Source: Candidatus Thorarchaeota archaeon
GTDB taxonomy: Archaea; Asgardarchaeota; Thorarchaeia; Thorarchaeales; Thorarchaeaceae
NCBI GenBank assembly: GCA_046482545.1
Contig: JAWOEX010000035.1
Coordinates: 32,001-96,000, forward strand
Length of the DNA: 64,000 nucleotides
Direction: 5' to 3'
How positions within the stretch are numbered: the stretch's first letter is position 1; each line of letters starts with the position of its first letter. Position numbers and translations under genes: made by a program. Shown here one piece after another: positions 16,172 through 54,145 of this stretch. The notes under the pieces are model-generated. The model saw only the letters and a list, made by a program, of their open reading frames with translations. It ran no database searches and was not told the DNA's origin.

Positions 16172-17318
16172 AAGGATTTCGAGATCGTCTTTTGTTTAGC
16201 GTTGAATAGGTAAGCCCTGATAGTGCAATGAGACGGTCAACTATCAAATCAGTTTCCGATTTACTTATTTTTGCCCGGGCATCGGCTTCTAGAATCGGCG
16301 TGGGAACACCATATTCAGGATGTTGCCATGAAAGCGGAAGAATAGCAGAGAGTGCTTTCTCCATCTTCTTCAAATCACCCTCTTCATCTAGGAGAATCTC
16401 AACCCGAATAGGGAGATCGTCTTTCGCTGTTTTTAGATATGTAATCCAAATCGAGGAAATCCAAGATGATAAGCCATCAGTCGCGCCTCGGGTATCATTT
16501 GCTAGTTCTGTGGAGAAGGGGAAGGCAAAGGTGCGTTCACCTTCCTCCAGAAAGGTATCAAGGATGTCACAATCTCTGGAGATTTTTAGCAACCATCTGT
16601 AGTCTACACCCTCCATAAGCTCGAAAAGAGTAGAATCCTTGAGAAGGTGAGGAAGAATTTCTCCGAGTATTCTGACAATCCGTATTGATCTACTATCTTT
16701 GATGATACCCAATAGAATTGTCCGTTTTTTGGTAACGTTATGAAATAACTGGCGATATAATGCAATAACTTCTTGAAATTTGGCATAAGCCATTGATTTC
16801 CGGTTTGGACGGTCCCGGGGATGAAAAACAAGAGAGCCGTCCATAAGCACAAGATCTGCATGATATTCCTCAATTAGGCCGATAGCAACCCTTAGTTCGC
16901 TCGCTATACGCTCAAGCGATGCAATTTGGTCAAGTTCCGATGTAGATATTTTCTGTGTGAGAGGTCTAACTTCTGGATTTGGGAATGGCTGAGGAAAATA
17001 TTCTACATTTGGTCCTTCTTCGAATCCAAATCCAAATACTACTCCAATACCTCGAGTGAATAGGAGATCCATTGAACGGAATCGTTTTCGTACTAACCCA
17101 CCATCAACCCCTGCAACTTTCAGACCTGAAAGGCGAGTTGGTTTTACTTTCTTGATTAGACTTGTTTCAGGTAGTCCGGCAGAAACTGAAGGAAATCTAG
17201 CTAAGTCAATGTCTTCTTTCATTCGACTCATAGCTGCCCCGAATCCCCTGCGAGTCGTCTCAACCCGCTCTATTTCCTCAACTAAATCGGCTAAAGCACG
17301 ATCAAGAGATTGATCCAT
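16158..17318 (-). CDS. nurA: NurA 5'-3' nuclease
   Basis: AGVDGG, LMDGSL, GIIKDS, YGVP.PILEAD. Confidence 0.88.
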   Translation of the reverse strand: MDQSLDRALADLVEEIERVETTRRGFGAAMSRMKEDIDLARFPSVSAGLPETSLIKKVKPTRLSGLKVAGVDGGLVRKRFRSMDLLFTRGIGVVFGFGFEEGPNVEYFPQPFPNPEVRPLTQKISTSELDQIASLERIASELRVAIGLIEEYHADLVLMDGSLVFHPRDRPNRKSMAYAKFQEVIALYRQLFHNVTKKRTILLGIIKDSRSIRIVRILGEILPHLLKDSTLFELMEGVDYRWLLKISRDCDILDTFLEEGERTFAFPFSTELANDTRGATDGLSSWISSIWITYLKTAKDDLPIRVEILLDEEGDLKKMEKALSAILPLSWQHPEYGVPTPILEADARAKISKSETDLIVDRLIALSGLTYSTLNKRRSRNPFGGS

Positions 17319-19117: not shown

Positions 19118-19696
19118 CTAACTGGGAGAAACAAGCAATTTCGAACGCATAGCGTTATCGAAAATCATTTGGAAAGCCTGCATAATATTTGTTCCATCAA
19201 GTGCAATACTATGCAATACCTCAACTGAGTTTGGTATCCCAATTTCTCTTCGAAATTCCGTTTCGTGTACTGTATTCGGTAAATCCTGTTTGTTCAGACA
19301 AATTACAATAGGGAGGGGGGTGTCTTGTAAATCAAGCATTGTATTTAGTTCGTCCCAGCTTGCTATATTGTCATCTAGTAGATGCCTCTGTGAATCTGCA
19401 ATGAAGATGAGACCATCTGTCCCTACAAGCACAATCTCTCTTGTTGATTTATAGAAGTCCTGTCCCGTTGCAGACCATATATGGGCGTCTATTGTCCAGT
19501 TATTGTCCAAAAGGAAGGAGATTGAACCGTAATCACAAAACATAGTTCGGCCGACAGTATTCTCTATTGATGTCAACTCCTCAAGATAATCAAATGCCGA
19601 GAAGAGCCAACGGATTGCAGTTGTCTTACCACTCATGGCGGGACCATAGAAGACAATCTTTAATGAAATCGTTTTGGAGCCATAGTCGACTATCAA
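19118..19696 (-). CDS. MglA-like small GTPase
   Basis: KIVFYGPAMSGKTT, GRTMFCDY switch I, SATGQ, NKQD. Confidence 0.85.
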   Translation of the reverse strand: MIVDYGSKTISLKIVFYGPAMSGKTTAIRWLFSAFDYLEELTSIENTVGRTMFCDYGSISFLLDNNWTIDAHIWSATGQDFYKSTREIVLVGTDGLIFIADSQRHLLDDNIASWDELNTMLDLQDTPLPIVICLNKQDLPNTVHETEFRREIGIPNSVEVLHSIALDGTNIMQAFQMIFDNAMRSKLLVSPS

Positions 19697-36838: not shown

Positions 36839-38035
36839 CTATTCATTCAGGAAATCGAGTAAAAATGCTTCTAGCATTCCTGCGGGTACATCTGATAGAC
36901 CAATTAGCGTTGTCTGTCCCCGTTGTCCTTCCCCGGATCGCTTTGTATCAATCACGCCATGTGCATTCAGGTCTTGAACCCACTCCCAAACTTGGGTATG
37001 AGATCGGGGATCTTCATCATACTCTTCACAAACTGTTCGGTACATCTCTTCCACTTCACCCATTGTCACATATGCACTCCGTACTTCCTTCAGTTGGCGC
37101 GCTGCTGCCAGCAGCAAAAGCTTGTTTTGTAGGGGAAGAGTTGAGAAAACCTCCTTTCGTAGCTCCGGATGTGTATCAGCTTTGGCCTTTCGTACGAAAT
37201 CAGGTATCACAACACCAGAACGTTCCGTATCAGCCTGCTTGCCAGCACGCCAGAGAATCTCTATGGCATATCTTGCATCACCACATCCAGAGGCTATGTC
37301 AGAAATGACCTGAAGGGTCTCCTCCATGACAGCATTGTCCTTGAAAGCCATCTCTGATCGCTGACTGATAATGTCATAGAGTGCTTCTGAATTGTACTTC
37401 TCAAAGCGTAGAATATTACGCTGCAAAGTACTAAGTGTACTAGAATCAAAGATGGAGTCATCTAGAGGTATGTCCCGACCAATACCAATTATCGAAAGTC
37501 GTTGGGGAGAATTGAGACGATCGTCATTCAATCGAGTCAAGTCGTAGACTATACTCCCACCTTTTTGGGTTATGAAGTAGTCGAGCTCATCGAGGATAAG
37601 TAGAAGATACCTGTCTTCAGAATCAAGGACATCCATTATTAATTGAAGAAGCTCTTCAGGTGAATGTCCTCTTCGAGGAAATTTTGGCTTGAATTCCTTG
37701 AGAATCCGTAAATAGACCAAGTATTTGCTCTTGTTTACCCTGCAATTCACATGGATTTTGTGTAGATGAATATTTCTTCTTCTTGCAGCACGTATCATTT
37801 GTTCTGCAAAGCGTTTTGCAACGGCCGTCTTTCCTGTACCAACGGGACCTTCAATTATGAATTTGTGACTCGTTTTTCCGGGCGACGTTATCAGGGTTTT
37901 GAAACTACGAGCTAGCCTTCGAAGCTCATTTTCTCGATGAGGGAGGGTCTCTGGTACATAGTCAATCGATAGATATTGCTCCGATTCGAATACTGTATGT
38001 CTACTTAGCTCGTCTTCAACAAAATCTAGCGGCAT
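36839..38035 (-). CDS. cdc6: Orc1/Cdc6 replication initiator
   Basis: DYVPE.LPHRE, GPVGTGKT, LDELD, GDAR.AI, C-terminal winged helix with RGQTT. Confidence 0.95.
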   Translation of the reverse strand: MPLDFVEDELSRHTVFESEQYLSIDYVPETLPHRENELRRLARSFKTLITSPGKTSHKFIIEGPVGTGKTAVAKRFAEQMIRAARRRNIHLHKIHVNCRVNKSKYLVYLRILKEFKPKFPRRGHSPEELLQLIMDVLDSEDRYLLLILDELDYFITQKGGSIVYDLTRLNDDRLNSPQRLSIIGIGRDIPLDDSIFDSSTLSTLQRNILRFEKYNSEALYDIISQRSEMAFKDNAVMEETLQVISDIASGCGDARYAIEILWRAGKQADTERSGVVIPDFVRKAKADTHPELRKEVFSTLPLQNKLLLLAAARQLKEVRSAYVTMGEVEEMYRTVCEEYDEDPRSHTQVWEWVQDLNAHGVIDTKRSGEGQRGQTTLIGLSDVPAGMLEAFLLDFLNE

Positions 38036-40334: not shown

Positions 40335-41462
40335 ATGTCTTCCAAGGAGCTTTCAGTGAAATTCTGGCAGGGCAACAAAGCTTGTGCTGAAGGGGCTATC
40401 TCTGCAGGATGTCGTTTTTTCTCTGGATATCCGATAACTCCTGCATCTGAAATTGCAGAAATAATGTCAGAGAGGCTTCCAGAAGAGGGTGGAGTATATC
40501 TTCAGATGGAAGATGAAATAGGCGCAATATCAGCGATAATTGGCGCGTCTTGGGGCGGAAGAATGTCAATGACAGCTACTTCAGGCCCCGGATTCAGTCT
40601 GATGCAAGAAAATCTAGGATATGCAATGATGACAGAGACGCCATGCGTTCTGGTAGATGTCCAGAGAGCAGGACCAAGTACCGGACAAGCTACTAAAGCG
40701 GCCCAAGGAGATTTAATGCAATCTAGGTGGGGTACGCATGGGGATCATGAGAGTATCGTCCTAGCCCCCAATTCGGCACAGGAGATGTATGAGCTTACCA
40801 TTCGGGCATTTGAAATTGCTGAAAAGGTAAGGCACCCAGTAATTGTGTTGTCAGATGAGGTAGTTGCACATTCTAGAGAAAGGGTACAGATTGACAATAC
40901 GATAGATAGGAGAGTATCACGAAAAATAGCCAAGAAAGGCGTTCTACCTTATGGAGAAGTAGATGATACAGGTCACTCAATTATGCCGAGATTTGGAGAT
41001 GGCCATAAACTGCTCATAACGGGATCAACTCATGATAGAGAGGGATTCAGGGAAACTGCAAATCCAGAGGTTCATGATGATTTGGTTCGTCGAATAACTA
41101 TGAAAATCAAAGATAGTTCTGAATTTCTAAAGGATGTAATTATCTCCGGACCCGAGACAGCAGAGTGGGGTATAATTTCGTTTGGATGTACTTCCAGAAC
41201 GGTAGAGCAAGTAATGGCAGAGAACGGGGAACAGGTTTCAATGAAATCTTTGAGGCTTAGGACAGTTTGGCCTTTTCCTGATGATGAAATGCTCGAATTT
41301 GCGTCCACTGTAGAGCACCTATTAGTTCCTGAGCTAAACTTAGGACAATTGAGTCGGGAAGTGTCACGAGCTGTTAAGGGGGTAGTGGATGTCGTTCCTT
41401 TGCGGAAAATTGGTGGAGGACGTGTAATAGAGCCGTCTGAGATAGTGGATATAGTGTCCTGA
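40335..41462 (+). CDS. korA: 2-oxoacid:ferredoxin oxidoreductase alpha subunit
   Basis: GNKACAEGA, GYPITPASE, QMEDE, TATSGPG, PELN.GQ; start re-set to 40335 because the upstream extension is IS end sequence. Confidence 0.92.
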   Translation: MSSKELSVKFWQGNKACAEGAISAGCRFFSGYPITPASEIAEIMSERLPEEGGVYLQMEDEIGAISAIIGASWGGRMSMTATSGPGFSLMQENLGYAMMTETPCVLVDVQRAGPSTGQATKAAQGDLMQSRWGTHGDHESIVLAPNSAQEMYELTIRAFEIAEKVRHPVIVLSDEVVAHSRERVQIDNTIDRRVSRKIAKKGVLPYGEVDDTGHSIMPRFGDGHKLLITGSTHDREGFRETANPEVHDDLVRRITMKIKDSSEFLKDVIISGPETAEWGIISFGCTSRTVEQVMAENGEQVSMKSLRLRTVWPFPDDEMLEFASTVEHLLVPELNLGQLSREVSRAVKGVVDVVPLRKIGGGRVIEPSEIVDIVS

Positions 41463-43741
41463 GTGCCCGTATAGGATGGTTCGGCTGCAGATTCGATATC
41501 CAAACCAGCAATGGCAATATATGTCTCCATCCATATGAATACTTGCGTAGAAATTGTCTGATTAAGTCGATAAGGATGACTGATATTGAGTAGAAGTTGA
41601 TGGTTACCTGGAGAAATATGAAGTGGTAATCTGATTTCAACTGTAGGAGTCTGGGTCAGATTCTTGAAGATGTTAGTTGCAATGTTTACACCTTCAATTT
41701 CTGCAGATAGATACACTTCGGATATACTAGTGTTATCATAACCAGCCGCTAGCAAATCAAATGATAGATTGTCGTCATACTTAGCATGTAATCCGGAAAG
41801 ACTTGCATTCATTCTCCCCAATACAATTAGTGTGAAATATACAGGGGCTTTGAATTTGCAGCTGGTATTTAGTGAATGATAATGGATTCTATGGGGGCCT
41901 AGAGGTGTGTCGATTGGTATATTGAAACTCAGATTGGTTGCCGAATTCATATGAACTTTGACGGATAGATTACAATCAATATCATAATTTTTTAGTTCAA
42001 CATTGATAGAAGCATTTGTTGATTCGGAAGTTACGAGGAAAGTGAAGAATGAGCTTGAATTTCGTAGAGACTCTGTAGAGCTATTTTGTAGCTGAAACTC
42101 TAGTGAATGGTAGAGTTGGATTGTATGCCAGTAGATTCCTTCTTCGGAGTATTGTGCGGGGGAAGCTGCCAATTGAAAGCAGAAGTCATATGAATCCGCA
42201 GAGTAGGATGAGCCAATCATCCATCTCAGGGTAGCGTTTCCATCTAAATCAGTAGACACCGTAGTCAAAGGATTGTTTAGATGGTCTGTTACGGTAATAT
42301 CAATATTAGATAAGGGCATATTGGACGGGTCTAGAACTGTCGTATTCATTACTATCTCGCTGTCCAAAAATGCTTGTGATGTATTATCTGTTCTAATGGA
42401 GGGAAGGAAGTAGGTGCTGAATCGATAGGAAAATGTATCATGCGCATAGTATATTGATTCATTAGAAGTGATACAAAGCGAGCTTGATCCCCACAGGGTT
42501 TTGGAAATTGAGAAATTATAGCGCAGAATTCCAAATTCATTTGTATGCAAGAGGGGTGTAGACATCGAATGGTTGTTGATTTTGAATTCTAAGAAAAGGG
42601 CATGGTTGCCAATGTTTTCATTGGCTACTGTATCCCGAATAGATAGGACGAAATCAGCACTCTTTCCTGCGATGGGTGTCTCTTCTAGTGAGACGTTGAA
42701 GTCTATAGGCCTACGTTCAGCTGTTATCATAAGTGTAGTATTTACGGGCTTGTACCGAAGGTTTGTGGCAGAGATATTAACCACATAGTTGCCAGGAGGT
42801 GCTTCGAATGGAATGGAGCAATTGTACATTCCATTTTGAAGTGCATTCATTGTTCCATTTGAAAAGGCAGTCCTCCATGTGAGTAGACTATCATTAATTG
42901 CATCGTTTCTTCCGTTTGTATGCTTAACGACTATGTCAGCAGAATCAGAATGCATTTTATCCGAAGACTGACAATAAACTGATGGGTCTGCTGATATTGT
43001 GGTAAGTGAGGAATTAGCAGGCAAAATAGTTACAGTGAACCAATCAGAAAAAGGTTCGAAGGAATCAGTGCCGTTGCTTTCCAGTGACAGGTTGTAATTT
43101 CCTGTTGGAAGAAAGGTATTATTGAGATTGAAATCAATTTGACCGGTACCATTTATGCAAGGAATCCAGTTGCTAACACATTGATTACCAGAGTCATGTA
43201 GTTTCGCCGAGACTGGTAGACCTTCCTGAAATATGTCTTGGTTATATCTAGAACCCAATCTGAATACAAATGTATGATTTAATCCATACTCAAATTCGAG
43301 AGGGGTGATTGGCGTGGCCAATAGCCGCCCTCGAGTAATATTGACTTGAATAGTCTCGCTTTCTCCATGGGTATATTTGTCATACATTTCGACATTGAAC
43401 ATGGCATGTCCACTGCTACCATTCACACCCGGGGAAATGGTGTCGGGAGTCAATAGACAAGATGATTGGAGTATTCTAGGTTCAGGAGAGGGAGGAATAA
43501 AATATGCGTCTTGATAAATCAATTCTGAAATCGTAGATACCGAAAATGAAACATGACACCATCCATCGCTTCCGAAATCTGCAGTAAGCTTGGCTGCCAT
43601 TTCAATTGTCTCTCCCACTTCGTAATCCAACTGGTCTGTCTGGAAGTAGTCCATTTGAAAATAGAAGGCTGATACAGGCATGATAAAAGCTAGAAGCAGG
43701 AGTGAAGAAACTTGAAGGGATAATACTATCTTGGATTGCAT
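41072..43741 (-). CDS. Secreted beta-rich (Ig-like repeat) surface glycoprotein
   Basis: Signal peptide (..PVSA|F), many NxS/T sequons, T(D/N)xxG repeats; the last ~130 codons overlap korA antisense. Confidence 0.7.
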   Translation of the reverse strand: MQSKIVLSLQVSSLLLLAFIMPVSAFYFQMDYFQTDQLDYEVGETIEMAAKLTADFGSDGWCHVSFSVSTISELIYQDAYFIPPSPEPRILQSSCLLTPDTISPGVNGSSGHAMFNVEMYDKYTHGESETIQVNITRGRLLATPITPLEFEYGLNHTFVFRLGSRYNQDIFQEGLPVSAKLHDSGNQCVSNWIPCINGTGQIDFNLNNTFLPTGNYNLSLESNGTDSFEPFSDWFTVTILPANSSLTTISADPSVYCQSSDKMHSDSADIVVKHTNGRNDAINDSLLTWRTAFSNGTMNALQNGMYNCSIPFEAPPGNYVVNISATNLRYKPVNTTLMITAERRPIDFNVSLEETPIAGKSADFVLSIRDTVANENIGNHALFLEFKINNHSMSTPLLHTNEFGILRYNFSISKTLWGSSSLCITSNESIYYAHDTFSYRFSTYFLPSIRTDNTSQAFLDSEIVMNTTVLDPSNMPLSNIDITVTDHLNNPLTTVSTDLDGNATLRWMIGSSYSADSYDFCFQLAASPAQYSEEGIYWHTIQLYHSLEFQLQNSSTESLRNSSSFFTFLVTSESTNASINVELKNYDIDCNLSVKVHMNSATNLSFNIPIDTPLGPHRIHYHSLNTSCKFKAPVYFTLIVLGRMNASLSGLHAKYDDNLSFDLLAAGYDNTSISEVYLSAEIEGVNIATNIFKNLTQTPTVEIRLPLHISPGNHQLLLNISHPYRLNQTISTQVFIWMETYIAIAGLDIESAAEPSYTGTQDTISTISDGSITRPPPIFRKGTTSTTPLTARDTSRLNCPKFSSGTNRCSTVDANSSISSSGKGQTVLSLKDFIETCSPFSAITCSTVLEVHPNEIIPHSAVSGPEIITSFRNSELSLIFIVIRRTKSS

Positions 43742-43856
43742 TATGTCACCTGTACTTGGTTTGTGTGCTCTCTAAAAAAGGCCACAAGCTGCTAACGACA
43801 AGTTTAATTCAGACCTCTAGGAGGAGTATTTGTCTCGATAATGGAGAGCTCTAGAA

Positions 43857-44222
43857 ATGGTTGTCAAACTTGAAAATGCCGTTATTGAATCGATGGAGGA
43901 AACTGAAACAAAGAATCTAAGGCTCTTAGAGATAACCTCAGAGGGCGGGAATGCAAGGTTGAGTCTTGAATTGCCAGAAGTGCTTTGTGAGACACTTGAC
44001 CAAGAGAAACCGATAGATGTACATATATCACCTAGAGAAACGAAAAAAGGAAGCCGGTCAAATATCTATGCCAAAGGCACGATTTTTAAGCTAGAAGACG
44101 AAGAAGAATTGAGAGTGGTAGGTTCCATTGGGGGTTTGAGACTGGTGGTTAGCATTGAGGATGCATCTTCAACTGAGAAGAGATCGTTTGAATCAGGAGA
44201 ATTTTACATAGCGATTTCATGA
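43857..44222 (+). CDS. rpo8: RNA polymerase subunit Rpo8 (RpoG/RPB8-like OB fold)
   Basis: 121 aa, YAKGTIFK...GSIGGLRL pattern of RPB8. Confidence 0.7.
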   Translation: MVVKLENAVIESMEETETKNLRLLEITSEGGNARLSLELPEVLCETLDQEKPIDVHISPRETKKGSRSNIYAKGTIFKLEDEEELRVVGSIGGLRLVVSIEDASSTEKRSFESGEFYIAIS

Positions 44223-44501
44223 TAATGCAGATGGAAAACAACAAGTAGCAAATATTCAGAGTAATTTACATTTTTCTGGTTCTTCATTTGAGTCCCTTCA
44301 ATTTGAAAGCAATTGCTAAGAATAGAGAAGCCGTCTGTGAGGGAAATACTTTCGGGTTACCCTCTTTCCCAGTAGGCCGTCTTTGACTGGTCTTTAACAA
44401 GTAGGTATATGCCTGAACGTATAATTCATCACATTATCCATACATAGAAGTTGTGAAAGCAAAAAGGGAATACAGTCAACTGGAACTAATCGGGAATTAT
44501 A

Positions 44502-45527
44502 TTGACAGACAAATCAGATAGTTCATATCAAGAACTTCTTGGCACTTGTCCTGATTGCTCTGGCACTCTCGGAACAAGTGAGGGTTACATCGTCTGTCTG
44601 AACTGTGGATTGGTAGTATCGAGGAAATACGTGAGTCCTTCCTATCAGATGGGACAACAGAAGTCCGATGACAGTCCTGATGCAGCAATGTATGTATCTC
44701 TAGGAAATAGAATGCATATAGTGGATGGGCTGGGAAGCTATATCGGCTTTCATAGAAACAAGTATTTCCGTGACTCAAAAGGAAGTGCTTTGCCAGGAAA
44801 GCTCCAGAAAAAATTCCACCGATTGAAGAGTGTGTATAGTACTAGAATCAGAATAGGTGACGATGAAGCCAAGTATCGAGCATTGAGAACACTGAATCGG
44901 GTTTCAAAGCTACTGATGATAAATGAACAGGTGCGAAATCGAACTGCTTACTTGTATAAGAAACTGATTACTGAAGCAAAGAACAAAATGACTAACAACA
45001 TCATTTTGATGGCAGTCTGCCTTCTTATGGCCGTTAGAGAATTCAAAGAGTGCGCCCCCATAACACTTGAGGAAATAGCAGAGACTTTTGAGAAATGTGG
45101 ACATAGAGTGAGTGTTCGAACCATAGTCAGAGAAGCAATTGACCTTCGCTCAGCGACAGGTTATGCTCCAAGGATTCGAAAACCCAGAGAATATGTACCG
45201 AGAATCCTTTCCATGTTAATGAATGACTCAGAGGTAATTTGGAGGCTCCAATCAAGAGGGTGGGAATTAAAGGAATATAAGAACAAATTGAGCAAAATTC
45301 TAATGAAAATTCTGAGAGGTTTTCCGTCTTCACGAAGAGGGGGTAGAGATCCGTTTATTTTTGCCGTTTCTGCAGCCTATGCAGCGGACAGAATCATAGC
45401 TATCAAAGTAGGAAAACAGGCAGTATTGACACAGAAACTCACTTCTAAAGCAACCGATGTGGCAGAGTATAGTATTCGGGATCATTTTGGAGTGATTAAA
45501 AAGTGTATCAGGATTACCAGCAAGTGA
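44502..45527 (+). CDS. Divergent TFB/TFIIB-family protein
   Basis: Zn ribbon CPDC..CLNCGLV, two cyclin-like repeats (ITLEEIA; GRDP..FAVSAAY..TQK...DVAEYSIR). Confidence 0.8.
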   Translation: MTDKSDSSYQELLGTCPDCSGTLGTSEGYIVCLNCGLVVSRKYVSPSYQMGQQKSDDSPDAAMYVSLGNRMHIVDGLGSYIGFHRNKYFRDSKGSALPGKLQKKFHRLKSVYSTRIRIGDDEAKYRALRTLNRVSKLLMINEQVRNRTAYLYKKLITEAKNKMTNNIILMAVCLLMAVREFKECAPITLEEIAETFEKCGHRVSVRTIVREAIDLRSATGYAPRIRKPREYVPRILSMLMNDSEVIWRLQSRGWELKEYKNKLSKILMKILRGFPSSRRGGRDPFIFAVSAAYAADRIIAIKVGKQAVLTQKLTSKATDVAEYSIRDHFGVIKKCIRITSK

Positions 45528-45676
45528 ACGTATCGTTCGGCGATTATACCCCACTAGGGGAACTGTCCCAAACGGACATGTGGGCCTTAAATCTGTTACC
45601 AAAAATCGATAATGGAAACTATGATTGACTCTCATATCCGAGAACCCAATTGGTTCATATCTTGATGTGAAAAGGA

Positions 45677-47347
45677 ATGGGCATTGAATCATACAACAAG
45701 AAAAGAATAGGAAGAAGTAGGTATGATGTAGTATTCCTAGAATGCCCTGAGGCTCGTTGTGTTGACTGTGAGAAGTACACAAGAGATAAGTGTGAAATTC
45801 TTACCCAGTGGCAAGAACAGACAGAACGTGACTCCCAATTAGTGATAATGGAAACGAGAAGGGGCTATATCCATCTTGCTCCGTCAGATAGGAAGCATGC
45901 GGCGAAGCCGCCATGGTTCACAGAAGGGTGGGGCTCGGTATATTTGGGGGATGGATTAAGACTATCTTCATCAGACATTGTGGAGATATATCGAGTAGGG
46001 CCTTATCTCGTATATTTCTCTGTGAATAATCATAACAAGATGCCGGTCCATCATGCAATACCTATGCTAAGAACACCTCTTGAGCATTCATTGTTTGAGG
46101 AGGTTTGTATGCGATTTCCATCCATGGAGAGAAAGTTCTCCTTCAAGCGAGAAGGATTAAATGAACGCCTAAGTAACAAAAAGGATGTCATCCTCGAAGA
46201 TCTTTCCGAAATCATTCCCGAGATGAATGAAGACACAAAAACTCGAATGTCCAAAATTGTTGCTCATCGCAAATCCGTTTTAGCACCTCTGTTTCCCTTG
46301 TTGTTTGATGAGGAAATTGAAGAAATCTATCTGAGCAGACCAGGCTCTCACATATACTTTGACCATCGTCGATTAGGGCGGTGTGAGACGAAGGTTACTT
46401 TTGACAAAAATGATGTGAGTCGGTTCATGACGTTAGTGCGTGCTGAGAGCAACTTCCATCTTGATTATGATAATCCATCGTTGAAGACTGAAATGGAGTT
46501 CGCAGATGTTCTTCTTAGGATATCAGCTACTATTCCCCCATTAAGTCCTGATGGGCTTTCGCTGGAAATCAGGCGAGCACGTTCAAAGCCCTTTACTATT
46601 GTGGATCTTTTGAAGAATGGAACACTGACCATGGAAATCGCCGCATTGTTGGTATCTGCTGCAAATGCTAGAACAAACATAACAATTACTGGAGAACCAG
46701 GAAGTGGAAAGACCACACTGTTGAACGCCCTTGATATGATGACACCTTCCCGATGGCGGAAACTCTACATAGAAGATGCTATTGAAAGTCGACTCTGGAG
46801 TGGCCACAAGCAGACAAGAATTAGGGTTCCTCCCTATGACGAAGGAGAGAGAAAATTGAGTAAGACAAATGAAATTGTGAAATGCCTTCATCGTTCTCCA
46901 GACTACGTGATTCTTGGAGAAATTCAAACAGCTGAACATAGCGCTGCTCTATTCCAAGCTATTGCAGCTGGGCTTCGAACAATGCAGACCTGCCACAGCC
47001 GAAATTCATCATGTTTGATATCCCGCTGGAGAGATTCCCATGGTATTAGTGAACATGAGATTGCACTTATGGATTTGATAATTACAATGAAACAAAGGGA
47101 ACCGGGAATTTCATATCGATATGTTGCAGAAGTTGCAAGAGTTCATCGTAGAAGGGAAAAGGGTTTGATACTCTTTGACGGTTTGAATATTATCTATGAA
47201 AAAGACGGTGAATCCGATTGCAGGAATATACTCAATTCCAATGAGAGGGAGCGTACTGTTACAGCTACTGCTTCAATGGAAGATGAGCTCGAAGTATTGG
47301 TAGATGGTTATCTTCGTAACTGGCCAAGGACGCTCCAAGAACTATAA
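45677..47347 (+). CDS. Type II/IV secretion (VirB11/TadA/ArlI-like) assembly ATPase
   Basis: RISATIPP, Walker A GEPGSGKT, Asp box IEDAIE, SPDYVILGEI, TCH. Confidence 0.85.
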   Translation: MGIESYNKKRIGRSRYDVVFLECPEARCVDCEKYTRDKCEILTQWQEQTERDSQLVIMETRRGYIHLAPSDRKHAAKPPWFTEGWGSVYLGDGLRLSSSDIVEIYRVGPYLVYFSVNNHNKMPVHHAIPMLRTPLEHSLFEEVCMRFPSMERKFSFKREGLNERLSNKKDVILEDLSEIIPEMNEDTKTRMSKIVAHRKSVLAPLFPLLFDEEIEEIYLSRPGSHIYFDHRRLGRCETKVTFDKNDVSRFMTLVRAESNFHLDYDNPSLKTEMEFADVLLRISATIPPLSPDGLSLEIRRARSKPFTIVDLLKNGTLTMEIAALLVSAANARTNITITGEPGSGKTTLLNALDMMTPSRWRKLYIEDAIESRLWSGHKQTRIRVPPYDEGERKLSKTNEIVKCLHRSPDYVILGEIQTAEHSAALFQAIAAGLRTMQTCHSRNSSCLISRWRDSHGISEHEIALMDLIITMKQREPGISYRYVAEVARVHRRREKGLILFDGLNIIYEKDGESDCRNILNSNERERTVTATASMEDELEVLVDGYLRNWPRTLQEL

Positions 47348-47474
47348 GTTGTAAGGAACTCTGTCTAAGGGGGATTATCAGCATGGGGGTATTCTGGGAT
47401 ATTGGGACAGTAATCGTCTTTTCTCAGTTGGGTTAAAATAGCAAATCGATAATCTTCTATCGAGGATATTGATA

Positions 47475-47681
47475 ATGACACAGAATAGCAACCCTCTGAA
47501 AGATAGTAGAGGCGGTCCACTTGTTGAAGAAAGTCTTTTGTTGGGAATAGCGGTAGTTACAGTCTCTATTGTAATTGCTGTTGTGCTTCAAGCTACTGGG
47601 TGGGCGCAGGATGTCATTTCAGAGCTTCTTGGTTTATTAGAAGACAGCTGGAGCAATCTTTCAGAGTTACTGAATCCTTGA
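47475..47681 (+). CDS. Small Flp/type IV pilin-like protein
   Basis: KDSRG|GPLVEESLLLGIAVVTVSIVIAVV: basic-Gly cleavage site, Glu at +5, hydrophobic helix. Confidence 0.65.
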   Translation: MTQNSNPLKDSRGGPLVEESLLLGIAVVTVSIVIAVVLQATGWAQDVISELLGLLEDSWSNLSELLNP

Positions 47682-47940
47682 CAACGGAAAGATGGTATGG
47701 CAGTAATCAAGCATATCCTTTGCTTTAATCCTGTTATTCTTTGTTTGACTTCAAATCTATTTTCCAGTTAGCTGTAAACTAGACTTGAGCTATTCATTAC
47801 GATAATGATGTTGCACAGATATCCTAGCTCAGCTCACCCAATATGCTGCTCTTGAGAGAGATCTTGAAAAGGAAGTCCCCTTGAGAAAGGCTTATTTGAG
47901 TTGTGAATGGTGCTGACCCGCTCCAAGCTGGTGCAAAGAG

Positions 47941-48050
47941 GCTCCGGTAGAAGTCGAAGGTGTTTACCTTGTGACTATCGAATGTAGTCCGGCCCAGCAT
48001 GGGGGACTCTCGATCCCCCGACCCGGGTTCAAGTCCCGGCCGGAGCACCA
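47941..48050 (+). tRNA. tRNA-Glu(CTC), CCA encoded, with 32-nt BHB intron at 10/11 (intron 47951-47982)
   Basis: Acceptor GCTCCGG/CCGGAGC, anticodon arm GGGGA-CTCTCGA-TCCCC; central helix CGGT/ATCG with AGA and AAT bulges. Confidence 0.93.
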
Positions 48051-48057
48051 ATTATTT

Positions 48058-50154
48058 CTATCCAATGAGATACTTTCTCCTGAGAGGAGGCAATAACACT
48101 AGTGAGAATGAGGAAACTATAGACAAAGCAAGGGGAAGCAAACCAACGCCACTCGAATTAGTAATGTCAAGAGAAGTTACCTCAATTTGGAGGATGCCAT
48201 AATAAGCTTGGATTCCTGAAGTAGAAGCTATATGGTATTGCAAGGTGTATGTACCAGGGAGAGTAGGGATGCGTAGTGAGAGTTCCAATATGCCACCAGA
48301 AATGGTTTGTGTGCTATGATTCTGACCTAGCCAGTTATAACTGGCCTGTAGTCCTTCAATTGTAGTTCCATTAAGAGCAACTAGCAATATGTTAACGGAA
48401 ATATGTTTTTCCAAAGGCTTTGTCTTAAATGTGACAGATTTGGGAACAATCGGTATAGTGTAGGAAGTATTAATGACAAATCTTCGTGTCCTTTGAAAGA
48501 CAAAGGCGGACTTATTTCCTTGATAGTATAGCGCCACGGAATGCTGACCTTCGCATTTCGGAATCTGAATGCTGACAGAAACCTCACCTCGCTTATTGCT
48601 ACGAGAAGCACCGTATTCTTTATCATTCACTAGTATCTGGATGTTTTTGTGGATGATTGGACCATAGAAATCAGTCAATGAGACGACAAACGACACGGTC
48701 TGACCGGGAATTGCGTAACCCATTGTACTACAATACAAGAAATCGAATTCAGGCTGAGACCAAACACATATCTGAAGAGGGCAGGTACGATTCTCCAAAT
48801 AGGGTGTATTACTAACGATAAGCAAGAGGTTTCTATATCCTAGTGGCTTTGTCGGAACTATAATGAAGAAATATTTTCCATTTTCTCCTGAGACTCCGGT
48901 GGAGTTTTCTCTTGAAATTGGATCGGTTATGAATACATTTTCAGCCTTAGCTGAACGATTCAGAAGATCGTAGATTGTTACGGTTAGTGTATTGGGTCTA
49001 TTAATGGTTAAGGAATTGTTTTCAGTAACTCTGATAAAACAGGGACTAGATATTATGATTTGTCTGGATAGGTTGGATGCATCATAACGTTCACTTCCAG
49101 AGTAGCGAATATTCATTGTATGTGGACCTAGCGCAAATGATTCGTTGAAGTGGATATGTAAGAGAACTGTTCCGGAATTGTTGGTCGATAATGTCTCATG
49201 GAGTTCATTATCAAAATCGACTTCAATAATTGCATTTCTTAGCAGTTCGTCTCCTGATGAAAGAGTGACAGATACATCTAGAGATGCATTTAGTGTACTA
49301 TGGATTGTTTCATCTTCAGAGATATCAATCTGAGTTGGCTTCTTTTCTAGTATGAACTCAACAGACGTTTGACTAGATTGGAAATACTGTGTAGAGTTTC
49401 CATCAAAGACTATGTCGAGTTGATTATAACCAAGCTCTGCCCAAGATTGATTACATGACAAAATAAATTGGAATAGGCCATTATTGTCAGTTAAACCTGA
49501 TTCAACTACTTCTCCGCTGCTCACGAGTTTGATTTGTTGAGAACTCAGGGGATATCCTGTGTCATCTATTAGACTCACAGACATATTGAACATATCATGA
49601 GGGTGTAACCGAGTATCGTGAATATTTGTTGTGATATTAGTAGATGATAGCACAGTCATGATTATCCATTGTGCTGAAGGTGATAGTCCTAAGGATTCAT
49701 TGCCTCGAAAAGTTATGTTTAGGGTAGTCTCTCCAATGGGATGGATAAAGGGGATTTGCCATTCAATGGATGCAAAACCTGTCTCGTCTGTCTTTGAGGA
49801 GCCGATGTAATAATCATATGTTTCATCAAAGAACTCAACATTTTGATTGGGAACAGGATCGCCATAGGTCCCATTTTGAAGAAGGTAGCATTCTATGGTA
49901 ATCGTCTCCCCCCGAGCGAAGGCTGGGTTTTCATTTCCCGAGACTAGGTCCGAGTTATGTGAAATCAAGATACAAAGGGATATGACCATTATAAGAACAA
50001 TAATTCGCTCTAACAAATCTAGATTTATGCTGGGCTTGCAAGGTTTGTTTTCAAACATATTCACTTTTCGACCCAGATTATGGTTTGTAGATGGTCTATT
50101 AACCTCGTATAATGTAACCTGACTCCATTGGCAGCTACTTGTGAATATGTACAA
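48058..50154 (-). CDS. Membrane-anchored Ig-like repeat surface protein
   Basis: N-terminal hydrophobic segment, repeated TDxxG...F/Y.G...Y units, C-terminal TM + RRK; true start probably downstream (~50058). Confidence 0.72.
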   Translation of the reverse strand: MYIFTSSCQWSQVTLYEVNRPSTNHNLGRKVNMFENKPCKPSINLDLLERIIVLIMVISLCILISHNSDLVSGNENPAFARGETITIECYLLQNGTYGDPVPNQNVEFFDETYDYYIGSSKTDETGFASIEWQIPFIHPIGETTLNITFRGNESLGLSPSAQWIIMTVLSSTNITTNIHDTRLHPHDMFNMSVSLIDDTGYPLSSQQIKLVSSGEVVESGLTDNNGLFQFILSCNQSWAELGYNQLDIVFDGNSTQYFQSSQTSVEFILEKKPTQIDISEDETIHSTLNASLDVSVTLSSGDELLRNAIIEVDFDNELHETLSTNNSGTVLLHIHFNESFALGPHTMNIRYSGSERYDASNLSRQIIISSPCFIRVTENNSLTINRPNTLTVTIYDLLNRSAKAENVFITDPISRENSTGVSGENGKYFFIIVPTKPLGYRNLLLIVSNTPYLENRTCPLQICVWSQPEFDFLYCSTMGYAIPGQTVSFVVSLTDFYGPIIHKNIQILVNDKEYGASRSNKRGEVSVSIQIPKCEGQHSVALYYQGNKSAFVFQRTRRFVINTSYTIPIVPKSVTFKTKPLEKHISVNILLVALNGTTIEGLQASYNWLGQNHSTQTISGGILELSLRIPTLPGTYTLQYHIASTSGIQAYYGILQIEVTSLDITNSSGVGLLPLALSIVSSFSLVLLPPLRRKYLIG

Positions 50155-50425
50155 ATACTGGACTTGGGGACAGCAGTGAAATCATCTCTGAAGAAAATGA
50201 TGGTTTAATCTCGTGAAAGAAGGGTATTACCTCAAAGTATGATTGATTCTTGTCATCTTCTAAAGGGAACTGGCGGGCAGTACGGTTCTTTCTCAAAATC
50301 ATTTGGTGACTTCATATTATGTAGTACTGCACATCCATACGGTTCGTTGATGGACATAGCTTGTAAACAACGGAGAGAAAAGGAAATGCAGATGGTTCTG
50401 AAAGCCTTGTGGGGTATCTTAAGAT

Positions 50426-53400
50426 ATGTATGTTAAGTTTTCAAAGTTGCTTAGGATTGCATGGCTAAGTTTAACCATATTTTCATTATTTTACTTTGTA
50501 ATCGCCTACGTTTTACCAATCATGGGCATGTTGCCGCTAGTAGTAGTTCCCATAAGATTTGTAATTGAGAGCCTTCTTCTTATATTGCCACCAATAACGG
50601 GAATCATTGTGGTAGGATTCAAAATCAAATCTCAGAAAGTATCAATTTCCATAGATGATGATATGTTTGCTGTACGATTGGATCAGGATATTGTGGCAAC
50701 TTGTGTTCTCCAGCTTAATTCTGTTGCCGGCTCTGTACATATAGATGAGAGCGGAGAATGCTCGTATGTAAAATCAGCACTTCTCGCTCTGCGTGAGGGG
50801 ATGGGAAATGATACAGCTATAGCCTACGAAGTAGGAACCATTAATCAACAACCCTTCATCCGCTTATTCATAACTGCACATGGGAATTCCATTGCAAGCT
50901 TGCGGCAGCATCTCCAGATTGAAGCTACGAGGTCAGAAGCCATCCTGCGAAGCACACTCAATACGGTTGAGATAGAAAGATTGGAAGGCGTGGAACTGAG
51001 GAAAGCTATTGAAACCATGCGAGATGGGAACTGTGGTGTATCAGGTCGAGGAGGAAATGACGCAGGAAAAGTATGCCAGAAAACAATTGCTATCAATGGC
51101 GAGCCAAGTATTAATTCTAGTGATGAAGCTACCCAGATAGGAACATTCCTAGTAGGCCTTCTAAGACAAGGGTACAATGCAAGTCTAACTTGTACATTTA
51201 GACCTTCAAGTTCTGGACGCGAAAAGGGAGTATTAGAAAAACAGTGGAGAAATATTCGCAGAAAGGAGCTTGAAAAGCGAGAGTCATTATCTGACCATGC
51301 TATGAAAAGAAAACTGCTGGAGGAATATCAAGAAATAGGCAATATTGACGCGTGGTTTCAAGCAAGCATCTATGTAACAATGGAAGCTGCTTCTGAGCAT
51401 GAGCTAAGACTTGTCGAAGAGGGAGTTAGTGGACTCGTAATGTCAATATGGGGTGAAAAGGGGACTCTGTCACTTGAATCAGTGAGGTTGGGGAAGAGAA
51501 ACTACTATCGGATATTAAGCAGACGGGGAGTGACAAGTATGAGGATCCATTTGAACAGACTTGTTGCCTATTTCAATACACCTGCCCAACAGCTCCCAGT
51601 AATAACAGGAAAGGCCGCCCCTCACTTTGCAATTCCAGAGAGAGAGGTTATTGATAATGAGTTAGTCGTTGGAAAGGCGGTATTCAATTCTCGATGTCTT
51701 GGTGACGTGGGTCTGAAAAAGGATTGGTTGCGAGAGCATATAGCTGTTATGGGCGCAACGGGTACTGGAAAGACCACGTTAGTGAAAAGACTAGTAACAC
51801 AGCTTAGCATTAAAACAGAAGTACCATGGTTGGTATTCGATGTAAAAGGCTCTGAATATGTTGATCTTCAGAATGCGGAGGTGGGCCCCATTACGGTTTT
51901 AGTTCCTGGCGCTGAAGATGATTTTGTGCTCAACTTGTTTACACCAGAAGGGGATGATCCTGAAAGACATGCGCACATAACTTTCGCGATAATTAGGGAA
52001 CTCCTGAATGAAAGAGATATCTCTGCTGAGCTTTCACCGGCAATGGAAAAGCTTTTGCGAGAAGCCGTAGAGAAGGTCGTTTTGGAAAAAGAAGAAAAAA
52101 CGGCAAGTTCTCTTGAACAGGTCATCGATGATGAAATCAATAATAATCGCATTTCCGAAATGACAAGAGACGCATTATTGAATCGACTTCAAGTTCTATT
52201 TAGGGAGCCACTGGCTACAGTTTTTGGTGCTGGAGAAAGAACATTGGAGATTTCAACTATACTGGATCAAAGAGTGATTCTGGACTTGAGTTATGTAGCT
52301 CGAATTGGAGGCATGGAAGCAGCAAGGCTCCTCTACAATGTTATTGTGAAAAGAGTCTTTGATTCAGCCATGCAAAGAGGGATAATGGAGGGGCTTCAAC
52401 ATGTAGTGGTACTTGAAGAAGCTTACAATCTAGTACCTGAGAGTTACACGAGAAATTCAGCCGCGGACATTACAACAGGAGAATCCATGGTAATGCTTCA
52501 AAGGGCAACAGGCCAAGGAGTTGTTGTTGTTTCAACTAGGCCAAATATATCGTCAAATATCTTAGCCAATACCTCTACAAAAATCACTTTTAGATTGCCG
52601 TATGATAGCGCTGTTGGTAGAAGATATCTTTCTTTAGATGACAGGCAAGAGGAATATCTACAGTCACTTGACGTCGGAAATGCGTTGATTAAACTACCAG
52701 ATGTTAGTGTTTTCGAAATCAAGACGTTATTGCCGGAATATCAGGAAAAGCCAATAGCAAGTGCTCAAGAGGTAAAAAGTGAAGAAGTCTGTGAAGTTGA
52801 TGTTTACGCTACTGAAGCTGTATCTCATGGAGTGGGAGAGGAAGTCTGCGAAGAGAGAGAAGAGGGGTCCATAAGAAAGGACCATATCCTAGGTGAGATA
52901 TCTGGATTGGTAACAGGATATGTTGCATCTCGCGATTTTGTAACACAGAAGCAGTTGGATCAATTTTTGGCAAGTTTCAACTGCAATGATATTAACATGA
53001 CGCGGAGTGAATTATTCGATGAGCTCATATCACTCTCCATTATTCAGAGAGAAGCATTACCAATTGTTGATGGCGGTTTTGTGTTTTCAGTGGCAGGGAA
53101 CACCAATCAGTCGATAAAGGCAGCAATATCACAATACATATTGGAAAAATCAGAGAATATACAGAAGTTTGAACACGACGGTTCAGAAGGGTCACCTGAT
53201 TTCGTTGTGGGAAGCAATGCTATTCTGATAGTTCCTGAGCGAATTAGAATACAATCGATTGAGCAGACGGTTGGAGCTATTAGAAATTGCATGATGAAAG
53301 TAGGTAACGCAATAGACAAACTATTTGTAATAGTAAGAGGGAGCATTGCTGCTGCGAAGGTTCGAGAAAGGATTGAGAATATTGATGGCTTTGATTTGGT

Positions 53401-54145
53401 AACCATAGTGCCGGCGTTTCAGAGTTCAATTGATAGAATGATTAGTACATGTACAGAATCTCAAACATCTAACGAGGGTTCGACCAGAACAAGAAACCAT
53501 GAAATTACTTCAGCTTTGGAAGAGCTCAATGGTGATATTGATGAATCCGCTGGAAGACTAGGTAAACGGGTATGGTTTGGATTATTGCGTGACTTTCTTT
53601 CTGTCTCGGGAGGATCAATTCGATGGAGTGATTTTCTTAGTTTCATTAATACAACAGCCATTCAATCGAAGAAGTCGCGTTCTGTTCCATTATCCAAAAA
53701 CGGAGGTTTGCAAGCTCTCATAGAGATGGTTGAGGAAGAACAATGCCATCTGTTTAGAGGGGGCAAAGATGTCGGTCTATCTGATTTGGGACCTGGTCTT
53801 TGGGTTCTTGGACCAATGGACTTCCAAAGCATTAGATCTGAGGCTTTAGATGTAATTAAGGAGAAGCTAGAAAGTATTGAGGGAGAAATATCCTTGAATC
53901 ATTATCCTTTTGACTTCTGTCTGGGAGATAAATCATATGCAATATTGCCTGAAAAAGATAGACTTGAACTGATAATTGATTGTCAGTCTGGAGTTGCCTG
54001 TAATTCATGCCAGTCACATGAAGCTATATGCATCTTAGGAGATTTACGCATTGTAAATGAGAAAACTGTTATACCCGGTAATGTCGTTATCAGATTGTGG
54101 GAAGAAGGTGTTTCCTCTATTCTTGATCGCCTTATTCATGGTTGA
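50426..54145 (+). CDS. Large membrane-anchored VirB4/HerA-FtsK superfamily ATPase
   Basis: Two N-terminal TM helices, HIAVMGATGTGKT, VFDVKGSEY, VLEEAYNL, STRP, NTSTKITFRL, ~450-aa C-terminal extension. Confidence 0.8.
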   Translation: MYVKFSKLLRIAWLSLTIFSLFYFVIAYVLPIMGMLPLVVVPIRFVIESLLLILPPITGIIVVGFKIKSQKVSISIDDDMFAVRLDQDIVATCVLQLNSVAGSVHIDESGECSYVKSALLALREGMGNDTAIAYEVGTINQQPFIRLFITAHGNSIASLRQHLQIEATRSEAILRSTLNTVEIERLEGVELRKAIETMRDGNCGVSGRGGNDAGKVCQKTIAINGEPSINSSDEATQIGTFLVGLLRQGYNASLTCTFRPSSSGREKGVLEKQWRNIRRKELEKRESLSDHAMKRKLLEEYQEIGNIDAWFQASIYVTMEAASEHELRLVEEGVSGLVMSIWGEKGTLSLESVRLGKRNYYRILSRRGVTSMRIHLNRLVAYFNTPAQQLPVITGKAAPHFAIPEREVIDNELVVGKAVFNSRCLGDVGLKKDWLREHIAVMGATGTGKTTLVKRLVTQLSIKTEVPWLVFDVKGSEYVDLQNAEVGPITVLVPGAEDDFVLNLFTPEGDDPERHAHITFAIIRELLNERDISAELSPAMEKLLREAVEKVVLEKEEKTASSLEQVIDDEINNNRISEMTRDALLNRLQVLFREPLATVFGAGERTLEISTILDQRVILDLSYVARIGGMEAARLLYNVIVKRVFDSAMQRGIMEGLQHVVVLEEAYNLVPESYTRNSAADITTGESMVMLQRATGQGVVVVSTRPNISSNILANTSTKITFRLPYDSAVGRRYLSLDDRQEEYLQSLDVGNALIKLPDVSVFEIKTLLPEYQEKPIASAQEVKSEEVCEVDVYATEAVSHGVGEEVCEEREEGSIRKDHILGEISGLVTGYVASRDFVTQKQLDQFLASFNCNDINMTRSELFDELISLSIIQREALPIVDGGFVFSVAGNTNQSIKAAISQYILEKSENIQKFEHDGSEGSPDFVVGSNAILIVPERIRIQSIEQTVGAIRNCMMKVGNAIDKLFVIVRGSIAAAKVRERIENIDGFDLVTIVPAFQSSIDRMISTCTESQTSNEGSTRTRNHEITSALEELNGDIDESAGRLGKRVWFGLLRDFLSVSGGSIRWSDFLSFINTTAIQSKKSRSVPLSKNGGLQALIEMVEEEQCHLFRGGKDVGLSDLGPGLWVLGPMDFQSIRSEALDVIKEKLESIEGEISLNHYPFDFCLGDKSYAILPEKDRLELIIDCQSGVACNSCQSHEAICILGDLRIVNEKTVIPGNVVIRLWEEGVSSILDRLIHG

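Follow-up and report, generated by a model that had tools for sequence, protein, structure and literature searches.

A TFB paralogue linked to candidate type IV filament genes in Asgard archaea, and a VirB4-like ATPase beside them in Thorarchaeota

The 64,000-nucleotide stretch analysed here (the window; Candidatus Thorarchaeota archaeon, assembly GCA_046482545.1, contig JAWOEX010000035.1, positions 32,001 to 96,000) contains, at positions 41072-54145, a divergent paralogue of transcription factor TFB (TFBx), a filament ATPase of 556 residues (ATPase556), a candidate mini-pilin, two surface proteins (Ig698 and Ig889, Ig standing for immunoglobulin-like) and a membrane-anchored ATPase of 1239 residues (ATPase1239). 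An earlier note, made from the sequence without database searches, had proposed these six genes as one module for cell contact and DNA transfer. All six open reading frames (ORFs) are present where the note had placed them, within 13 kb, and a genome search finds each in single copy. The gene list was sound as far as it went, but it had missed the RNA polymerase subunit gene for Rpo8, just upstream of TFBx, and a published precedent for the arrangement (subclade 4D, discussed below), as well as the tRNA-Glu(CUC) gene that lies between the pilin gene and Ig698. We hold with moderate confidence that the locus consists of two separate conserved envelope gene sets that are neighbours in Thorarchaeota. 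The first would be a minimal Flp/Tad-like filament system under the control of TFBx, and the second a translocase pair made up of Ig698 and the VirB4-like ATPase1239.

The first set is recognised by its linkage across the phylum. The genes linked phylum-wide are TFBx, a TadA/ArlI-type ATPase, a TadB/C-like platform protein and a Flp-like mini-pilin, with Rpo8 included in Thorarchaeota and Odin-like genomes; Rpo8 adjoins TFBx both in the Thorarchaeota family to which this genome belongs (hereafter the family) and in an Odin-like family. The genomes of relatives are samples and are partly incomplete; a gene reported as not found was not found in the genomes searched. A match to the ATPase, in most cases a single one, turns up in 54 of 61 relatives. 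Nineteen genomes outside the family have both TFBx and the ATPase, and in 14 of these, representing 11 of 13 families, the two genes lie within 10 kb of each other. In most of the linked families they are immediate neighbours on the same strand. In other classes the ATPase gene is followed at once by one or two genes for TadB/C-like membrane proteins (loci L028, L029, L030 and L032), a 140-residue pilin-like ORF stands between ATPase and platform gene in locus L031, and a closed Odin-like genome (L028) encodes a 61-residue homologue of the mini-pilin after its platform genes. One genome carries two TFBx-platform-ATPase sets, although its bin may mix strains. Outside the phylum, a similar cluster stands on one Bathyarchaeota contig, where the ATPase and two membrane proteins are accompanied by a TFB-like gene, an A24-like peptidase and four pilin-like ORFs. 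The conserved unit formed by TFBx, ATPase and pilin is real and ancient.

Table 1. Features of the locus and of the related filament genes elsewhere in the genome. Positions are those of the window unless a contig (C10, C23) is named.
Feature	Length	Position	Strand	Remarks
Ig889, secreted putative beta-sandwich surface protein		41072..43741	-	rich in N-glycosylation sequons; promoter region divergent with Rpo8
Rpo8/Rpb8 RNA polymerase subunit	121 aa	43857..44222	+	directly upstream of TFBx; profile of 14 orthologues
TFBx, divergent TFB/TFIIB paralogue	341 aa	44502..45527	+	Pfam and NCBIfam TFIIB matches
ATPase556, TadA/ArlI/GspE-type type IV filament ATPase	556 aa	45677..47347	+	Pfam T2SSE E 1e-20
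Conserved BRE/TATA-like element GGGTTAAAATAG		47430..47441	+	about 30-40 nt upstream of the pilin start
Flp-like mini-prepilin	68-70 aa	47469..47681	+	predicted cleavage G|GPLVEE, one hydrophobic helix, acidic amphipathic tail
tRNA-Glu(CUC)		47941..48050	+	non-canonical D-arm intron of about 32 nt; partial Rfam tRNA match
Ig698, Big_3_5/MG4 Ig-like surface protein		48058..50154	-	divergent pair with ATPase1239
ATPase1239, membrane-anchored FtsK/HerA-superfamily ATPase	1239 aa	50426..54145	+	DUF87 E 1e-15
TadB/C-type T2SSF platform	508 aa	C10:66754-68280		beside Nre gene; other contig of the genome
A24 prepilin peptidase	169 aa	C23:362-871		short, TadV-like; other contig of the genome

ATPase556 is the co-oriented VirB11/TadA-type ATPase that had been predicted, starting 150 nt after the end of TFBx. 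Its best solved relatives in the PDB are A. fulgidus GspE2 (2oap), FlaI and CpaF; its Walker A and B motifs, Asp box and His box are all intact, and an N-terminal Cys4 cluster (C-P-x2-R-C-x2-C-x7-C) is kept throughout the family. The best NCBIfam match is TIGR03819 (E 1e-26, 94 bits against a cut-off of 373), with the FlaI and VirB11 models scoring similarly. This is the sole pilus-type assembly ATPase of the genome. A second T2SSE match (C28:121051-122325) was rejected as a pilus ATPase, adjoining a tRNA-splicing endonuclease gene and having no pilus context.

No platform, peptidase, relaxase or integrase occurs within the stretch, just as the earlier note had it. The genome-wide search that the note proposed for platform and peptidase recovered both on other contigs. 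The platform on C10 scores 31 bits against T2SSF in the genome search and 27 bits as a called ORF (cut-off 25.2 bits). Its two halves match two Odin-like membrane proteins (E 2e-22 for the N-terminal half, 3e-12 for the C-terminal half), and it is therefore the cognate platform, relocated in the family. It is present in single copy in 33 of 36 family genomes, never near ATPase556, and the 14 family loci have no membrane protein of four or five transmembrane helices within 10 kb of the ATPase. The peptidase on C23 scores 38 bits against Pfam Peptidase_A24 in the genome search and 37 bits as an ORF (cut-off 26.5 bits), and it carries both catalytic Asp motifs, D29 and GGAD88.

The mini-pilin gene, first read as a 68-residue pilin-like product with a class III signal, does have the leader, the G|GPLVEE motif and the hydrophobic helix expected of it. 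The product is 70 residues long from a TTG start, or 68 from the ATG at 47475. Its charged leader varies in length and sequence among genera; from GGPLVEE onward the protein is near-invariant, in genera whose ATPases share merely 43-51% identity. Judging from the motif, cleavage would fall after the first Gly and leave a Glu at position +5, a feature of type IV and Flp pilins. Members of the mini-pilin family occur in 157 of 201 Asgard genomes, and in seven further families the gene is no more than 10 kb from that of the ATPase. Upstream of the gene, the sequence GGG-N-TTAAAATA occurs in most of 14 genera at the same position as the element listed in Table 1, which resembles a TATA box with its TFB-recognition element (BRE) and probably acts as the promoter.

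TFBx is indeed a divergent TFB. It matches the NCBIfam TFIIB model at E 5e-15 across residues 15-335 and the Pfam Zn_Ribbon_TF and TFIIB models at E about 1e-3, below cut-off. TFBx shares 20-25% identity with the genome's own four canonical TFBs and 36-45% with orthologues in other Asgard classes, and the named matches from a similarity search are all labelled as Asgard, mostly as Thorarchaeota. The protein retains the Cys4 Zn ribbon, a B-linker-like GLGSYI motif, two cyclin folds and the C-terminal helix-turn-helix. The identity of its neighbour Rpo8 comes from a profile search of the PDB, in which Rpb8/Rpo8/RpoG chains make up the top five matches (S. pombe Rpb8 at E 1.7e-5, Sulfolobus Rpo8 at about 1e-4, and S. 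shibatae RpoG among them); a genome search gives no second Rpb8/RpoG match elsewhere. As a separate observation, most genera have a conserved block, CTGAAAG-N3-5-GTTAGG, some 45-55 nt before the start of TFBx (44440-44470 in the window; loci L013-L026). A canonical TATA box is absent there, and the block may be bound by a regulator or serve as an atypical promoter.

The core of this combination is not new. Subclade 4D of the archaeal filament ATPases, in Pyrobaculum and Thermoproteus, has the ATPase, a membrane protein with four or five transmembrane helices, a TFIIB homologue and RPB8 in one string (Makarova, Koonin and Albers 2016, Front Microbiol 7:667, PMC4858521). The 4D ATPase lacks a C-terminal domain and has a small Cys-rich one at its N-terminus, the TFIIB homologue (arCOG05559) is described with one cyclin fold, no pilin was found, and a role related to transcription was proposed as possible (PMC4858521). 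In its features the set described here resembles 4D, namely in the N-terminal Cys cluster and missing C-terminal domain of its ATPase, in having a TFIIB homologue in the same string with Rpb8/Rpo8 adjacent and, in other Asgard classes, in the short TadC-like proteins with three to five transmembrane helices that follow the ATPase. It differs in the two cyclin folds of TFBx, in the placement of the Thorarchaeota platform at another locus, in its Asgard rather than Thermoproteales hosts and in its conserved Flp-like mini-pilin, which is an addition to the 4D gene set.

The 4D proposal leads to an explanation without any pilus, in which the ATPase and its membrane partner form a transcription-linked membrane device that might, for instance, control TFBx or RNA polymerase upon an envelope signal, the "pilin" being a membrane subunit of that device (after PMC4858521). 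Such a device would fit the linkage of Rpo8, TFBx and ATPase across Asgard classes and, by the literature, in Thermoproteales (PMC4858521). It would also fit the stronger conservation of TFBx (61-88% identity) than of the ATPase (42-72%), an N-terminal Cys4 cluster that is atypical of pilus ATPases, the family's loss of both the platform adjacency and the C-terminal domain of the ATPase, and a pilin that matches no pilin model. We nevertheless consider it quite unlikely. The prepilin-like leader with Glu at +5 is retained, as are the cognate platform and an A24 peptidase with both Asp motifs, and the Bathyarchaeota cluster holds several pilin-like ORFs together with a peptidase. Such features are hallmarks of a working filament system.

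Bacterial pili of the Tad/Flp (type IVc) kind and archaeal ones of the Epd-like kind are among the nearest known parallels. The likeness extends to an ATPase that may be of the TadA/CpaF kind, TadB/TadC-like platform proteins (split in two in several Asgard classes), a TadV-like A24 peptidase and a very small pilin with a G|xxxxE-type cleavage motif. The differences are that the Asgard pilin has no match to the Flp family of Pfam (Flp_Fap), that the Asgard set has no TadZ, secretin or minor-pilin genes, and that its linkage to TFB and Rpo8 has no bacterial counterpart.

Within the family, synteny was followed in 14 loci from 12 further genera and two congeners. The gene order is Cdc6-POR-Ig889-Rpo8-TFBx-ATPase-pilin-tRNA-Ig698-ATPase1239-AAK-GlmS, and the block is colinear from Cdc6 to GlmS in 12 of the 14. 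An arrangement that recurs in so many genera is not there by chance. It is no proof of a functional unit either, because the housekeeping flanks (Cdc6, POR, AAK and GlmS) are kept equally well. In the two rearranged loci (L025 in genome G013, L026 in G017), TFBx stays with its ATPase and Ig698 with ATPase1239; the arrangement of the two sets relative to each other has changed, and they remain within about 20 kb of each other. In a closed genome of about 3.2 Mb from the same family (G027; completeness 86%), the ATPase, TFBx and Rpo8 were not found and the platform is present; this gap could be a real loss or a missing segment.

It might be asked whether slow rearrangement of the origin-proximal cdc6 region is all that keeps these otherwise unrelated genes together. 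Cdc6 does lie 6-8 kb away, in the Thorarchaeota family and in three other classes alike, and colinearity of the housekeeping flanks is what a slow region would produce. Against this, TFBx, ATPase, platform and pilin remain next to each other in 11 families whose flanks are otherwise different, one genome has two TFBx-platform-ATPase sets, and the Ig698-ATPase1239 pair survives local inversions. We hold this account to be very improbable.

The locus is chromosomal and is not a mobile element, since its gene order is kept across genera, housekeeping genes flank it on either side, and it has neither an integrase nor any shift in composition. The earlier note had preferred a chromosomal locus over a conjugative element, and it was right in this. 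The possibility of an element integrated at the mid-locus tRNA-Glu was rejected as well: direct repeats of the 3' part of the tRNA gene are only short and attributable to chance, and the absence of an integrase and the colinearity among genera speak against it too.

The second set is the divergent pair of Ig698 and ATPase1239. Ig698 has a Big_3_5 match (E 2e-14), an N-terminal signal or transmembrane segment and a C-terminal transmembrane anchor. The pair is intact through both family rearrangements (L025 and L026), and in a sister family a homologue of Ig698 (E 1.7e-18) again stands divergently beside a relative of ATPase1239. Full-length ATPase1239 orthologues are confined to the family, where 42 of 43 genomes have one. 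Other Asgard classes have membrane-anchored relatives of 800-1400 residues that match residues of about 220-780; their genes are 42-270 kb away from that of the pilus ATPase or on a different contig, and their neighbours, the sister family excepted, are not conserved. The synteny across Asgard genomes that was suggested as a check on all six genes thus holds for TFBx, ATPase and pilin, and not for ATPase1239. The second set is tied to the pilus module by neighbourhood at the order level only.

ATPase1239 consists of two or three N-terminal transmembrane helices, a VirB4-like N-domain, an ATPase domain, and two copies of a module in which a winged helix is followed by an alpha/beta domain. Sequence models place it no closer than the superfamily. 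The best NCBIfam matches are CedD (E 4e-17, 62 bits against a cut-off of 600) and CedB (26 bits against 700), and the VirB4 model TIGR00929 gives 18.5 bits with a cut-off of 643. An AlphaFold2 (AF2) model of residues 75-800 (pLDDT 78.6) has full-length TrwK/VirB4 as its top Foldseek match (E 1.7e-22 over about 800 columns), ahead of HerA (3e-13), TrwB (1e-10) and the VirB4 C-domain alone (3e-10). The VIA comparison with VirB4 gives Z 21 over 588 residues, with a high root-mean-square deviation. The predicted fold aligns over the full length of TrwK, and the N-terminal transmembrane helices recall fusions of VirB3 to VirB4. Unlike VirB4, ATPase1239 escapes the sequence models for that family, has no other type IV secretion system genes nearby, bears the two C-terminal modules, and is chromosomal, single-copy and vertically inherited in one family. 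Searching a plasmid collection was uninformative, its matches being confined to the ATPase domain of bacterial genes annotated "ATP-binding protein". A small ORF upstream (50239-50436) was tried as a VirB2/VirB3-like partner and rejected, having no hydrophobic helix.

The C-terminal 450 residues were modelled separately (pLDDT 75). They form two repeats, each a winged helix (VIA Z 9.0-9.5) and then an alpha/beta domain that weakly resembles restriction-endonuclease and Can2 nuclease folds (VIA Z 7-8.6). This region finds nothing in Pfam or in a PDB profile search, and no Foldseek match at E 0.001 or better. As a conserved D...(D/E)xK motif is absent, no nuclease is claimed.

The large ATPase was thus correctly read as a membrane-anchored protein of the HerA/VirB4 type, and it is not the housekeeping HerA, because the window has a separate HerA (508 aa) with an adjacent NurA at 14645-17318. 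That HerA is 25% identical to ATPase1239, over the ATPase domain only. HerA proteins are about 500 residues long, paired with NurA and free of a membrane anchor, and ATPase1239 shares none of these traits. Given a VirB4-like motor anchored in the membrane and modules that may bind DNA, ATPase1239 most likely moves a polymer across the membrane, and that polymer is probably DNA.

The earlier note went further and proposed that the six genes may be one regulated system of cell contact and DNA exchange, an Asgard analogue of the Sulfolobales TFB3-Ups-Ced DNA-damage response (Ups pili, CedA/A1/A2/B/D/E), in which the pilus would join cells and the VirB4-like ATPase would import or export DNA. Several observations speak for it. 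All six genes fit into 13 kb, 12 of 14 family loci keep them colinear, and even where rearrangement has occurred, in two genomes, both sets are within about 20 kb of each other. The best NCBIfam matches of ATPase1239 include CedD and CedB, CedD being the best at family level, and the protein combines a VirB4-like fold with winged-helix modules. A TFB-family factor sits with pilus genes, which parallels the control of Ups and Ced by TFB3 (PMC11868833). Other observations speak against it. The relatives of ATPase1239 outside the family are not near pilus genes and have unconserved neighbours, and the synteny within the family retains unrelated housekeeping genes as faithfully. The scores for CedD and CedB, 62 bits against 600 and 26 against 700, indicate a relation at the superfamily level only. 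No CedA/VirB6-like partner was found with Pfam TrbL, a model not made for CedA; ATPase1239 has a long extra C-terminal winged-helix region, and the pilin is Flp-like rather than like UpsA or UpsB. TFB3 is not known to have two cyclin folds; TFBx keeps both and is not TFB3-like in architecture. Finally, ANTTTC, the damage motif of Sulfolobus, shows no enrichment upstream of the locus genes (0.14-0.60 per 120 nt, with about 0.34 expected), and none occurs upstream of TFBx in this window. The analogy fails in several particulars, one functional module of all six genes is only partly supported, and we regard a single system as unlikely.

The same motif was seen in another place. ANTTTC/GAAANT occurs upstream of cdc6 (36839-38035) in 12 of 12 family genomes, at a mean of 1.08 per 120 nt where about 0.34 is expected. 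These copies could be origin-recognition boxes or sites of autoregulation.

For the reading in two sets, the following mechanism can be proposed. A minimal Flp/Tad-like type IV filament machine would comprise Rpo8, TFBx, ATPase556 and the mini-pilin as well as two proteins encoded elsewhere, the C10 platform and the C23 peptidase. The A24 peptidase would cut the prepilin at G|GPLVEE, and ATPase556, docked on the platform, would polymerise the resulting pilin of about 50 residues into a thin adhesive filament. TFBx would be the set's own factor for transcription initiation, comparable to a flagellar sigma factor whose gene lies among those for the flagellum. In the second set, ATPase1239 would be the translocase, VirB4-like, anchored in the membrane and bearing winged-helix modules, with Ig698 as its surface-protein partner; the two sets might also cooperate.

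Several results weigh against this picture. In the filament set, no Pfam pilin family matches 12 members of the mini-pilin family even at E values up to 10, and a PDB sequence search with the mini-pilin returns no pilin, so that the label "Flp-like" reflects size, motif and context. ATPase556 is without the C-terminal domain of about 80-100 residues that is present in other Asgard classes, and this loss, together with that of the neighbouring platform, could signal a changed function. The B-reader of TFBx has diverged and has no canonical GPEWR, and TFBx may accordingly fail to initiate transcription alone. The genes do not form an operon, because each of them seems to have its own promoter. 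In the translocase set, the ATPase domain by itself does not single out VirB4, since DndH, VirB4, TrwB and HerA are tied at Z 25-29; the Z values for the winged helices are near the background that the tool itself reports; and the search for a VirB6-like partner gave no match to Pfam TrbL in the genome, a model that was not built for CedA.

The remaining features of the locus are of less consequence for the argument. Ig889 has a signal peptide, and the promoter blocks that it shares divergently with Rpo8 are conserved. The claim that both surface proteins carry Ig repeats stands for Ig698; for Ig889 the Ig-like call is weak and a CarboxypepD_reg match falls below cut-off. Its look-alikes in an atlas search, taken as leads only, are archaeal Big_3_5 proteins (score 0.89-0.91). 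The protein is tied to the pilus genes by family-level neighbourhood alone. Its last 130 codons are antisense to the 3' end of the POR alpha gene (41072-41462) in all family genera. Selected dual coding was considered for this overlap and rejected: 59% of synonymous shuffles of POR stay open for at least 130 codons, and the overlap is not selected because the open frame follows from the POR protein sequence. The tRNA-Glu gene is missed by ARAGORN when unspliced and is called as tRNA-Glu(ctc) once 30-38 nt are excised. It is a rearrangement breakpoint in relatives, and the inversion boundary in G013 falls there. Elsewhere in the window, at 19118-19696, there is a gene for an Arf/Ras-like small GTPase, typical of Asgard genomes. 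Beside the Asgard loci used for comparison are an intein-bearing A-type ATP synthase A subunit and an intein-bearing PolD large subunit (L041 12622-16080, L027 4194-9047).

Because ATPase556 is the only pilus-type assembly ATPase of the genome, the mini-pilin set is probably the sole type IV filament that these Asgard archaea can make, and the filament might provide the cell contact on which syntrophic Asgard lifestyles depend. The link between a pilus-type ATPase and a TFB, with Rpo8 added in Thorarchaeota and Odin-like genomes, is phylum-wide, recurs in one Bathyarchaeota contig and, according to the literature, extends to Thermoproteales, and it puts the genes of an envelope machine beside those of basal transcription. 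The pilin, lacking in the 2016 description of 4D, makes the question of how envelope and transcription are connected a testable one. The membrane-anchored VirB4-like ATPase with its winged-helix modules is an uncharacterised architecture and may be relevant to gene flow in the lineage nearest to eukaryotes. A bolder proposal, which we hold to be decidedly unlikely, is that Thorarchaeota, and perhaps many Asgard archaea, possess a chromosomal, vertically inherited apparatus for contact and DNA exchange, in which a TFB-controlled Flp-like pilus would join cells and a domesticated membrane VirB4-like translocase, with winged-helix modules for binding DNA and an Ig-like surface protein as partner, would move DNA. 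If this were true, the prokaryotes most closely related to eukaryotes would have a "mating" system of the Ced/Ted-like kind.

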